Below are positions 60,001 to 63,000 of a stretch of DNA of 64,000 bases, one piece after another (within the stretch, counting starts at the first letter, position 1; the number at the start of each line of letters is the position of its first letter). Where the stretch lies: the NCBI RefSeq assembly GCF_041248615.1, contig NZ_CP158425.1; one strand, 5' to 3'. Made by a program: the position numbers. This stretch comes from Escherichia coli. Lineage in GTDB: Bacteria > Pseudomonadota > Gammaproteobacteria > Enterobacterales > Enterobacteriaceae.

Positions 60001-63000
60001 GGGTAATTAACCCTGACTAAAGCTTTCACCTATTCCGTCGCTCGCAAGCGGCTTTCGCACACTAACGAAGGTATGGCCTTTCGTCGGTGTTAAATTTTTC
60101 GGCTATTTGCAATCTGAGGTTGGATTGTAGATTTTAGTTAGAAATGGATCAAAGTCCGTTTTGTGCAAAACTTGGTTGACAACCCTCTTTTGGATGATGT
60201 GCCGTTTCGTGCAAAAGTTGGTTGGAGGCCAAGATGGCAGAGTTCGTAGGTTCGGCTGCTTCGCAAGCTGATTTCATTTGGAAGAACGCGGAAGACCTGT
60301 GGGGGGGGGATTTCAAGCATACCGACTTCGGCAAGATCATTTTGCCGTTTACCCTGCTGCGTCGATTGGAGTGCGCACTGGAGTCTACACGGGAAGCATC
60401 GCTCGATAGCCAACCAGCCACGATTGAGTTCTTAGAAGCAGAGTTCAGTGTTGATTTCGATGCGCTGCTATCTTGACCGCCAATCAGACCCGCATGGTTC
60501 AGGTTTGTGTATGAGAGTCCCCAAATGGCTGTAGTTCTAACCAAAGCCTTGATTGAAGCCGGCCGCACCGGAAATAGTGGGTACAGAAAAAAGCAGTTGC
60601 TTGCGCTGGGCGTAAGTAACCCGCCGAAAAGCGGCTGGATCGAACGACTGATCGGCACTGAGGTATCTGACGAGCAGTACGAACGCTTTCTGGGGCACAG
60701 CACGAGCAAGCTGCATATTCCGGTCGAAAATGAACACCTATTCCGGTTTAAAATGAACGCTGATTCCGGCTTGCGTGTACACCGATTCCGGACACCTCAG
60801 TGCACGTACTCTGATGTCAGATGAACCGTCCTGTTCCAACGTCTTGGATCCACAACTGCCGCGCTGCGCTTGGCTGCTGGCTTGTTCAGTGAGTCGAAAA
60901 GATGCCTCCCCTCAAAGCTCAGCTTCTGCTCGAAGAATCCCTGTCCGCATACTTTCCGGAATCACTGTTCAACTTCACCGGAATACGCACAAGCAGGCTG
61001 AACAGATCCTACGCGGAGAGCAGCCAGCCAAGGGGCTTCAGTATGCAAAGCGAGCGAAGAAGCTCGCTTCTGAAAGAAAAGCCACAATTGATCTGGATAA
61101 CGAGCACCTGTCTGAAATCGAAAAGTATCGGTAGCCCTAGACTTTTAGCCGCTGAAGATCTCTTAGATACCATTGGTGAAACTTGCTGAAGTCAGCCTTC
61201 TGTTTCTCTACCGTGCTTTTATAGATCGCATCACTGGTAACCGCACAAGCAGTCCAGCCAGCCTCATAGACGAAGCGAGTAGCTATCGGTGACTTCTTCG
61301 GGGTGCTATCCCAGCGGTTTTTGAGCCACCGCGCAAGCCCTTCATCAAGAGGGACAACCAGATTTAGCTGCTGTTTTGTGCGAGTGATACCGACATAAAA
61401 CAGCCGACGTTCCTCCTCGATTACCTCTTCGGTCGGAGGGGTGTTCATCGATGTGCGAACGCTGTAAACATCATCGGGTTTGCCGCCAGGAAATTCCTGC
61501 TCATTCAGCCCGACCAGTATTACGTTATCCCACTCCAGCCCCTTGGAACCATGCAGTGTGGAAAGGATGAAGGGATCGCAGTCAGTTGCAGCCTCGCCTG
61601 GATTCAAGATAAGGTTTAAAAACGTGCGGGAATCGATCTTACTGGAGACAAGTAGCTCCTCGATCCTCTTGACCCCTCGTTGCTGGTCGTTCGATCCAGT
61701 GCGAGTTACACCCTCAGAGCCAACACTATCAATGAAACCCTCCATACGCAGGCGTAGTAACACATCGATAGCAGGCGTTTCCTCTCCGTCTTTCTGGCAG
61801 ATAGTGGCGAGCCTGCCCAGCCGATCTTTTTGGTTTTGTGCGCCCTCGAATAACTGGCCTAGAGCAGACCATAGGTCGGCGTGCGGAGCCATCAATCCAC
61901 TGAGCGCCGCTTTGAATTGCCCTTTCTGCCAGCTAAAACCAGCCTCCTTCAGAAAGCCGTAAACAATCGCTTGTTTGTTGGGATGGTTTTCCAGTAGCCG
62001 CAGATCGCCGTACACAGACAGCAAGACGCCAACTACCAGTATCCCGATTTCAGTGCGGGTGTGTAATGCGCTTGAACCATTGAGGTAGCGATAAGGTAGC
62101 CCACACAGGCGTAAAGTAATTTCCGCCTCAGCAAGGTTCGCCTTAGTGCGGGACAATATGGCTTGTGTTCCACTGCTCACCGAGAGGTTTGATAGCACCT
62201 TGGATAGGCAGTTATCAAAGTGCAATCTGACCTCTGTTTTGGGGGTGCTAGGATGACTGACACAAAGCTTGGTCAGCTTTGTAGAGTTGCGCCGAATTAC
62301 CGAGTTAGCCATCAAGGAAAGCTCATGGCCAAATCTGAACGTGCATGACAGTTGAAACACCTTCGTATTCGGGTAGTGCTTTTCAAACAGTCCGCCGATA
62401 AAGTCTGGTCGAGCACCACGCCACTCATAAATACACTGGTTAACATCACCAACAGCCATAACTGACGTATCCGACTTAGATAGCAAGCGGGTCATGTCAT
62501 GCTGTATCAGGTTAACGTCCTGATATTCATCAACAATGATGTGCTTGAAGTGGGCACCAAGGCTGCTGTCATTACGCAACAGTGCGACAGCCTCAACCAA
62601 ACAGTCATCAAAGGTTCGCAGACTGTTTTCCTCCAGCAGCTCACAATAGCGGCCATAGGCGCGAATAAACTCCCGTTTGATGTTGCTGAACGTTGGATCA
62701 TTGGCAGCATCAACAGGAGTTACGGCCGCCGCCCGGCAGCGAGCAATAAACAGCTCGAAGTTTTCAATTTCATTGGGGTCAATAAAATTCGCCTCATGGT
62801 CAAAGCCATAGCAGTAGGCTTGCTTTACCAGTTGCTCATAGCGGTAGTCGCTTGGAGTAATGAGGTCTTTCTTCTTGATTATCTGTTGGCGTTCTCCGTA
62901 ACCAACAATCTTTAAGGCCAAGCTGTGGAACGTGCGGATTTCTGGAATCACGCTCGACATCAGTGCCGTCTTCAACTTCTCCGTGAAGCTCACCTGCGCC

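Follow-up and report, generated by a model that had tools for sequence, protein, structure and literature searches.

In the phasevarions of Neisseria, Haemophilus and Helicobacter, mod/hsdM genes contain poly-G tracts or short repeats. Among mobile elements with restriction-modification (R-M) cargo, ISKpn25 belongs to the ISL3 family, is 8,154 bp long (PMC8796155, PMC8768599), carries hsdM-hsdS-hsdR, has NC_009650 as its reference and is found in pKpQIL-type plasmids. Other known elements include mic-qnrS2, a mobile insertion cassette of Aeromonas plasmids (1,375 bp; Cattoir 2008, PMC2600179), and, in the IS21 family (IstA/IstB), ISAS5 of Aeromonas salmonicida (2,614 bp; PMC4444841). Here, we analyzed a stretch of 64,000 nucleotides from Escherichia coli (hereafter the window; NZ_CP158425.1), in which an initial annotation had described a degenerate R-M-like gene with a run of nine G, and had considered either a decayed remnant of a larger gene or a slipped-strand on/off switch. 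On the basis of our results, it is very probable that this ORF is a stub left by an insertion sequence, that its G tract changes neutrally and that the ORF downstream is a separate gene split by a MITE.

The window is IncHI2 plasmid backbone: it matches pMS8345A and numerous further plasmids at 100% identity, one of which has been typed as IncHI2A. pHCM1, an IncHI1 plasmid, carries the stub as well. Coordinates of all features are shown in Table 1.

Table 1. Positions, strands and characteristics of the features at the hsdM' locus
Feature	Position	Strand	Remarks
Left terminal inverted repeat GGCTATTTGCAATCTGAGGTTGGA	60101..60124	+	Exact left limit of ISKpn25 homology
hsdM leader with two direct repeats CCGTTTyGTGCAAAAsTTGGTTG	60156..60225	+	Copies at 60156-60179 and 60202-60225
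hsdM' pseudogene stub	60234..60476	+	80 codons plus TGA; codons 1-54 (to 60397) HsdM-derived; last 26 codons other sequence
Poly-G tract	60301..60309	+	G9 here; encodes L-W-G-G-D
Tail and spacer	60398..60496	+	From the hsdM breakpoint to the conserved small-gene leader
108-aa gene, 5' part	60525..60711	+	62 codons plus 1 nt
Target-site duplication CAAGC, left	60707..60711		Single CAAGC at the empty site in L004-L007
278-bp MITE	60712..60989		Ends TGCATATTCCGGT... and ...ACCGGAATACGCA; several subterminal ATTCCGG-N-TGAACA repeats
Target-site duplication CAAGC, right	60990..60994		From comparison with the empty site
108-aa gene, 3' part	60995..61134	+	Ends ...SEIEKYR TAG; joined without a break to the 5' part in homologs and in plasmids lacking the MITE
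UvrD/GajB-like helicase gene	61137..63176	-	Pfam UvrD-helicase, E 2.5e-44; best PADLOC match GajB, E 1.4e-51; convergent neighbour, outside the relic

The initial annotation had read the beginning of this region as 84 codons resembling the N-terminus of an R-M subunit. Our analysis confirmed the G9 run, the TGA at 60474-60476 and the ORF that follows in the same frame (60507-60824), as well as the R-M likeness, but not the length. The 84-codon ORF closed by this TGA opens at TTG 60222, which overlaps the ribosome-binding site (GGAGG, 60224-60228) of the real start, ATG 60234. The same layout is found in intact homologs beginning MNEF/MAEF, and the product thus comprises 80 rather than 84 aa. 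Pfam gave a partial HsdM_N match (E 1.8e-9; residues 17-63 against profile positions 3-48 of 135), so that about one third of the domain is present; PADLOC MTase_I matched residues 8-60, and residues 1-54 were identical to Klebsiella HsdM at 51 of 54 positions. The Pfam scan detected no N-6 adenine methylase catalytic domain. When a 675-aa HsdM was searched against the window by tblastn, only residues 1-70 were recovered; HsdS and HsdR gave only chance-level matches over the whole window, and no further similarity to hsdM, hsdS or hsdR was present elsewhere in it. Accordingly, the complete HsdM_N plus methylase domain of a type I R-M methyltransferase is lacking, as are adjacent hsdS and hsdR genes. 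The finding itself is an ordinary one, and the stub is already annotated in RefSeq (PGAP) as a partial hsdM pseudogene, 'incomplete; missing C-terminus'. We also considered a stand-alone family of small HsdM_N proteins, in which the product would be complete. However, upon alignment, the 77-136-aa protein matches with apparent full coverage proved to comprise HsdM N-termini truncated where contigs end, the relic in a related backbone (L012) and frameshift variants of the stub, and such a family could not be upheld. The segment 60398-60496 showed only chance matches to hsdM, hsdS, hsdR, tnp and the right repeat of ISKpn25 and to the L012 tail; in PLSDB, it was found only in the same ∼799 stub-bearing IncHI plasmids, in all of them at ≥99% identity.

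Comparison with ISKpn25 revealed the source of the stub. Positions 60101-60397 correspond to approximately the first 294 bp of this element, that is, the left terminal inverted repeat, the leader and hsdM codons 1-54 (blastn, 75% over 297 nt). In alignments of the window, L012, the P0014 contig and the Klebsiella element, sequences are conserved from GGCTATTTGCA on, and the flank left of 60101 is unrelated. In the Klebsiella plasmid, an inverted copy of the terminal repeat lies 8,154 bp away, past the transposase gene; measured from inverted repeat to inverted repeat, the element has the published ISKpn25 length, and its ORF sizes agree as well. No right (inverted) copy of the terminal repeat was found in the window with up to five mismatches allowed, and a blastn comparison of the ISL3 tnp region and right end of ISKpn25 with the 161 bases past the breakpoint (60380-60540), to which it was confined, gave no significant match. 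Judged from its sequence, the feature is best classed as a relic and not an element, as the right repeat is absent. The right junction, where an 8-bp target duplication would be expected for an ISL3-family element, is deleted as well. The window copy shares with ISKpn25 the left inverted repeat, a 133-bp leader with both direct repeats, the ribosome-binding site and hsdM codons 1-54, whereas everything past codon 54 is missing (methylase core, hsdS, hsdR, right repeat and, within the 161 bases compared, ISL3 transposase). It is a diverged variant (pS ∼0.7 against the Klebsiella copy) that would be unable to transpose, and the G4 site of ISKpn25 is a G6-G12 run in IncHI stubs.

Both leader repeats are kept in intact ISKpn25, and they may be regulatory. 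TTGACA (60176-60181) lies in the first, whose counterpart enters the ribosome-binding site. A simple promoter scan called no sigma-70 promoter on the + strand at the leader. In L012, a 46-bp deletion between the repeats has removed the TTGACA-bearing copy. In the related backbone represented by L012-L016, 83 hsdM codons persist, followed by a different tail, and a single leader repeat is left; in L007 an IS3-family element lies directly 5' of the ATG; these states appear to be signs of independent decay. We suggest that an ISKpn25-like element carrying a type I R-M operon was once inserted in the IncHI2 backbone upstream of the 108-aa gene, and that a later deletion removed all sequence past hsdM codon 54. 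The left inverted repeat and leader would have remained, together with a stub of 80 translatable codons ending at the first stop in foreign sequence. A tblastn search of PLSDB for an intact element bearing the IncHI-type allele found none: intact hsdM genes reached no more than 93% identity, and the single context examined held an unrelated copy of ISKpn25. The suspicion that the ORF is the decayed remnant of a larger R-M gene was therefore well founded, the remnant being the 5' end of hsdM from an ISKpn25-like ISL3 element.

The sequence downstream has a different history. Excision of 60712-60994 restores a 108-aa ORF, which has intact homologs at 96-99% identity (P0121-P0126) and a 112-aa homolog at 88% (P0127). 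This gene is convergent to the helicase gene in L012-L016 and L018-L020, and has other neighbours in L017. Sequence searches of Pfam, PHROGs, PADLOC and PDB gave no matches indicative of its function. The frame-shifted, fragmentary ORFs noted previously up to the helicase gene are indeed present, but they result from the MITE insertion and not from gene decay. A promoter and terminator scan found no + strand promoter in the region and no convincing terminator.

The G9 run is the longest homopolymer of the 64-kb window, in which ∼0.11 runs of at least nine G would be expected from base composition. Intact or longer relatives have G4 at this site: the codons are TGG GGT GAC in intact hsdM (ISKpn25) and TGG GGC GAC in L012, and the P0014 contig likewise has G4 followed by T/C. 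Across IncHI plasmids, the length ranges from G6 to G12. It was read directly at nine loci (L001-L007 and L146-L147; G6-G10) and otherwise derived from match length, and G12 is implied by protein P0006. An invariant tract, which would have spoken against slippage, was thus not what we observed. In a PLSDB sample of 59 rows, 14 had G9, 1 G10, 35 G8, 7 G7 and 2 G6, such that ∼73% were out of frame; the corresponding numbers in an E. coli RefSeq sample of 60 rows were 26, 3, 9, 13 and 9. G9 is dominant in the window's own lineage, with G8 and G10 as minority states. The frame is open in G6, G9 and G12 variants, which keep the ribosome-binding site and ATG; this and the predominance of G9 count against a relic. 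All three frames reach a stop by 60476 (60409, 60435 and 60476), yielding peptides of 57-81 aa, none of which enters another gene. The original G4 probably became G6 by a synonymous GGY-to-GGG change, after which replication slippage is likely to have produced the lengths of G6 to G12 now seen among plasmids. The resulting frameshifts would represent neutral drift with no consequence for R-M, because the stub lacks a catalytic domain as well as S and R partners. As part of the overall account, we consider it very probable that the tract reflects slippage in a dead stub rather than an R-M switch.

The resemblance to a phasevarion is real but limited. Like such loci, the stub has a poly-G run early in a methyltransferase frame whose length differs among isolates, and to that extent the slipped-strand alternative raised earlier holds. 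Its role as an on/off switch, on the other hand, is not supported: catalytic domain and partner subunits are absent, functional orthologs (ISKpn25, and also L012 and the P0014 contig, all G4) do not keep the repeat, and every frame gives a truncated peptide with no alternative functional product. Nevertheless, the stub might encode a functional, phase-variable small protein, an HsdM N-terminal peptide acting against type I enzymes of the host or benefiting the plasmid in some other way, with the G tract as its switch. This would fit the ribosome-binding site, ATG and open frame, the polymorphism of the tract among near-identical plasmids (with G7 on two flanking haplotypes), and the retention of the stub in ∼800 PLSDB plasmids. 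We regard it as highly improbable, considering that about two thirds of HsdM_N are missing, that intact relatives do without the tract, that the out-of-frame majority in PLSDB includes a very large G8 clade spread across many genera, that L012 differs in length and tail and has lost the TTGACA-bearing repeat, and that the seeming full-length homologs are fragments or frameshift variants. A further observation in its favor is the comparison of codons 1-54 with the L012 copy, in which 14 synonymous and 0 non-synonymous differences were counted (pS 0.38, pN 0). Taken alone, this pattern resembles purifying selection on the stub and counts against a relic. We explain it by divergence at a time when each copy still belonged to a functional mobile element; in L144, where the flank is unrelated, a near-identical L012-type allele follows the same inverted repeat and reads on into a real hsdM. 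For the IncHI-type allele, however, the PLSDB search gave no intact element. If selection had instead acted on the stub itself, the relic might have been co-opted, its leader, ribosome-binding site and 54 HsdM codons giving a small peptide or translated leader toggled by the G tract, and it would then modulate host type I restriction at plasmid entry or tune transcription of the downstream small gene. Such co-option appears extremely unlikely.

The tract-length differences could also be mostly sequencing or assembly artefacts around an invariant tract. Long-read assemblies miscall G runs of eight or more, which would account for the minority G10 and G8 states in the window's own lineage, and some G8/G10 calls may indeed be such errors. 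As a general explanation, artefacts are very unlikely: each length class is common to many records from different laboratories and genera (for example, G8 with the T allele makes up about half of the sampled PLSDB rows), pHCM1 and pO111_1, presumably both Sanger-era sequences, have G7, and L006 has G6 despite flanks identical to those of pHCM1. Finally, hsdM' might form one gene with the ORF that follows the TGA, expressed by stop-codon read-through or recoding, a check on which had been proposed at the outset. The two ORFs lie in one frame with a single TGA between them, and coordinates give the same relation in L012. However, the downstream gene is equipped with a conserved leader and ATG of its own, L017 carries an intact 108-aa copy with no hsdM stub upstream, HsdM similarity does not extend past the TGA, an Rfam scan of 59000-61600 detected no structured RNA and no known recoding motif, and the stub is frameshifted in most plasmids. 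A single recoded gene is therefore scarcely conceivable, and the common frame is a coincidence, since the downstream ORF is a separate gene.

The MITE that splits this gene has terminal inverted repeats and a target-site duplication and no coding capacity, its empty site is known, and copies elsewhere are flanked by different 5-bp duplications (TCAAG, CCACT, ACGTT, CTTGT, CGTGG, GCGCC and CCACG). It probably inserted independently into the small gene in this plasmid lineage, creating the 5-bp duplication. Its TG...CA termini, several subterminal repeats and 5-bp duplication are shared with an IstA/IstB element of 2,615 bp (L072:2365-4979; GCGAC duplication), whose IstA matches rve and Mu-transpos_C_2 and whose IstB has an E value of 1e-72. 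The first ∼60 bp at each end of the two can be aligned, the comparison being confined to the ends. These similarities indicate that the MITE derives from an IS21-family element and is non-autonomous. Unlike the L072 element, it contains neither istA nor istB, and its mobilization must therefore take place in trans. The central part of the MITE had matches in A. salmonicida plasmids, which were intergenic and not in an IS.

In the IncQ2 plasmid pKPSH212, bases 81-278 of the MITE adjoin qnrS2 at 89% identity. Like mic-qnrS2, the window MITE lacks a transposase, is flanked by a 5-bp target duplication and is bounded by imperfect terminal repeats of ∼22 bp, a likeness in which the published cassette ends were matched by description and not base by base; it differs in being free of cargo and shorter (278 versus 1,375 bp). 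In the literature searched, we found no paper on the IncHI2 copy of the MITE, on the G tract of the stub, or linking mic-qnrS2 to IS21. The fact that a MITE related to the ends of the qnrS2 cassette has IS21-family ends suggests that IstA/IstB are the likely trans-acting transposase, which may be of interest for tracking qnrS2 mobilization.

Our results carry little weight for biology but have some practical value. They advise caution, in that a poly-G run in an R-M-like ORF should not be taken as a phasevarion until the surviving gene has been checked. The recurrent 'frameshifted, incomplete' hsdM annotation in ∼800 IncHI plasmids can be read as the scar of an ISKpn25-like, R-M-carrying element. 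In PLSDB, the stub occurs in 801 records and the MITE, at ≥99% identity, in 271; IncHI2 lineages, including carriers of mcr-1 or mcr-9, might be distinguished by the length of the G tract and by whether they contain the MITE.

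A full-length relative (675 aa) of the hsdM stub was found as the first gene of an hsdM-hsdS-hsdR operon in pKpQIL-type Klebsiella plasmids, in which an ISL3 transposase gene lies directly 3' of the operon. Inverted repeats, GGCTATTTGCATTCT... (left) and ...AGAATGCAAATAGCC (right), 8,154 bp apart, mark the two ends of this unit. The unit is ISKpn25, described as an ISL3-family element of 8,154 bp whose ORFs encode 684, 438, 1085 and 422 aa, and shown to be active and to produce 8-bp duplications (PMC8796155, PMC8768599). Homology between the window and ISKpn25 opened exactly at the left repeat and covered this repeat, a 133-bp leader and hsdM codons 1-54, with 75% identity over 297 nt; of the 54 encoded residues, 51 matched. 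No similarity to hsdM, hsdS or hsdR was detected elsewhere in the whole 64-kb window, which also lacked an inverted copy of the left repeat. The stretch after the hsdM breakpoint did not match the ISKpn25 transposase gene or right end, and no match to the last 26 stub codons and the following spacer was found outside the same plasmids. The confinement of homology to the left end of ISKpn25, with nothing beyond 60397, argues that the stub is a scar of the left end of an ISKpn25-like element with a restriction-modification (R-M) system as cargo. The proposal that the region is a decayed remnant of a larger R-M gene was thus borne out by alignment with intact hsdM, where the match stopped after codon 54. 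Coordinates are listed in the table.

Coordinates of the hsdM stub and neighbouring features
Feature	Coordinates	Strand	Remark
Homology to ISKpn25	60101-60397		
Leader direct repeats	60156-60179 and 60202-60225		24 bp each
84-codon ORF	60222-60476		begins at TTG
hsdM stub	60234-60476		begins at ATG
RefSeq pseudogene	60234-60455		
G9 tract	60301-60309		
Last 26 stub codons and spacer	60398-60496		
In-frame TGA	60474-60476		
ORF after TGA	60507-60824		same frame as 84-codon ORF
108-aa gene, insertion excised	60525-60711 + 60995-61134		
A-run in 108-aa gene	60587-60592		
CAAGC duplication	60707-60711 and 60990-60994		flanks 278-bp element
MITE	60712-60989		278 bp
Helicase gene	61137-63176	minus	short overlapping ORFs run up to it from stub side
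Helicase gene and 243-aa ORF	61137-63904	minus	

In the IncHI1 plasmid pHCM1, which also carries the stub, and in a related locus (L006), the left repeat adjoins the T-run of a lipoprotein-gene terminator; the reported target duplications of ISKpn25 are likewise A/T-rich (PMC8768599). The sequence immediately left of 60101 varied among sublineages (window ~56000-60100 vs L004-L007 and L147): a block of HipBA, HNH and hypothetical genes in the window, IS1203 in pO111_1, an IS3-family element in L007, and trhI with the lipoprotein gene in pHCM1 and L006. Therefore, the IS end at 60101 marks a boundary of recurrent rearrangement. The hsdM leader contains two direct repeats (CCGTTTyGTGCAAAAsTTGGTTG), both also kept in intact ISKpn25 and reduced to one copy by a 46-bp deletion in L012, a related backbone with its own stub; they may represent an operator, a promoter feature or an IS-end feature.

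The nine-G run, the TGA, the same-frame ORF beyond it and the short ORFs up to the helicase gene, all described in the initial annotation of 60222-61134, were confirmed. The resemblance of the first 84 codons to the N-terminus of an R-M subunit held in part: stub residues 17-63 matched Pfam HsdM_N at only profile positions 3-48 of 135, and no Pfam match was obtained for the downstream ORFs. The start needed revision, since GGAGG precedes ATG 60234 by five bases and intact homologs start (MNEF/MAEF) at the equivalent position, which would give a product of 80 aa. The stub is an ordinary feature already marked as a pseudogene in RefSeq ('type I restriction-modification system subunit M N-terminal domain-containing protein; incomplete; missing C-terminus'), with 'frameshifted' added in some records. 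Many large E. coli plasmids, pMS8345A among them, matched the region at 100% identity, and one of these was typed as IncHI2A in PLSDB. Overall, the stub occurred in 801 PLSDB plasmids and 113 complete E. coli genomes, with Enterobacter, Salmonella, Escherichia, Klebsiella and Citrobacter represented.

The G tract is longer than any other homopolymer in the window (~0.11 runs of this length expected from base composition); the only other G/C homopolymer of at least eight bases is an intergenic G8 (15953-15960), just past an ORF ending at 15927. At the tract site, ISKpn25 has TGG GGT GAC and two closer relatives TGG GGC GAC (both G4), a GGG codon in the IncHI copy gives G6 (L-W-G-D), and three further G in the window give G9 (L-W-G-G-D). 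The tract was far from invariant: G6 to G10 were read directly in nine related loci, and G12 is implied by a database protein (P0006). Remaining lengths, deduced from match length in evenly spaced samples, were G9 in 26, G10 in 3, G8 in 9, G7 in 13 and G6 in 9 of 60 E. coli RefSeq rows, and 14, 1, 35, 7 and 2, respectively, of 59 PLSDB rows, one large G8 clade reaching across many genera. Because each length class is common to many laboratories, this variation is real and goes beyond sequencing noise. G7 was present in both pHCM1 and pO111_1, yet L006, with the same flanks as pHCM1, has G6; as two flanking haplotypes carry G7, some tract changes must have recurred.

Such variability would be expected of the slipped-strand on/off switch that had been suggested, but the other evidence speaks against it: the stub was out of frame in ~73% of sampled PLSDB plasmids, ISKpn25 and the two closer relatives have only G4, and at all tract lengths translation ends at 60409, 60435 or 60476 without entering another gene. 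Read-through or recoding at the TGA, also raised initially, has the shared downstream frame in its favor. However, alignment with MITE-free loci (L004-L007) revealed a 283-bp insertion in the window, comprising a 278-bp element and duplicated CAAGC, whose excision restored a 108-aa ORF with intact homologs (96-99% identity, plus a 112-aa homolog at 88%). An intact copy is present in L017 in a context without the stub. This ORF is an independent, conserved gene, for which Pfam, PHROGs, PADLOC and PDB sequence searches gave no match; the shared frame is a coincidence and nothing requires read-through. Thus, the fragmentary ORFs after the TGA do exist, but reflect a separate gene split by the MITE. 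In the other main plasmid lineage, this gene lacks one base at the position of the window's A-run and is annotated as an 84-aa ORF. The gene (60525-61134, compared with L004-L007 and L018-L020) is damaged in both main IncHI2 lineages, by the MITE or the deletion, and intact in minor lineages and metagenome contigs.

A comparison with L012-L016, metagenomic contigs of a related plasmid backbone with the same order of stub, small gene and convergent helicase, might argue that the stub itself is maintained. The stub in these contigs retains 83 HsdM codons followed by another tail, and only a single leader repeat remains. Codons 1-54 (60234-60397 vs L012:7539-7700) showed 14 synonymous differences and no non-synonymous ones (pS 0.38), which at face value suggests selection on the stub; synonymous divergence was similar for the small gene (0.42) and lower for the helicase (0.14). 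On the other hand, contig L144 has an allele nearly identical to that of L012 behind the same inverted repeat in an unrelated left flank, running on as a genuine hsdM, and so these alleles circulate within mobile elements. We infer that the 14:0 pattern reflects divergence between functional mobile elements before each copy was independently truncated, with which the different breakpoints and tails agree; this step stays at the level of inference because no intact element with the IncHI allele was found.

The MITE has ends TGCATATTCCGGT... and ...ACCGGAATACGCA and several subterminal repeats. Copies with 88-92% identity, each with its own 5-bp duplication, were found in an IncC Klebsiella plasmid, Aeromonas plasmids and Aeromonas media. 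Its termini recurred in many genomes in a pattern scan, including elements of ~2.6 kb; one of these (L072:2365-4979), flanked by a GCGAC duplication, encodes IstA and IstB, and both of its ends could be aligned to the MITE ends. The MITE is thus a derivative of an IS21-family element. Its bases 81-278 adjoin qnrS2 in the IncQ2 plasmid pKPSH212, in agreement with the published 'mobile insertion cassette', which lacks a transposase and has imperfect repeats of 22 bp and a 5-bp duplication (PMC2600179). Together with the IS21-like ends, this suggests that the qnrS2 cassette is IS21-derived as well, and no paper stating so was found in the literature searched. Many MEGAHIT contigs in metagenome-assembled genomes of Methylococcales, Glaciecola and other Gammaproteobacteria (L047-L059, L070, L088-L091, L097 and others) also had the terminal pattern ~116-140 nt from their ends, a position suggesting high-copy MITE/IS21 relatives that break assemblies.

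The gene for the UvrD/GajB-like helicase, for which GajB was the top PADLOC match (E 1.4e-51), shares 4 bp with a 243-aa ORF upstream of it. This ORF, given as 284 aa in the annotation, has no family match, and no GajA-like partner is present. The pair is kept in L012-L016 and in L018-L019, where the small gene is convergent to the helicase, and may form an uncharacterised two-gene module.
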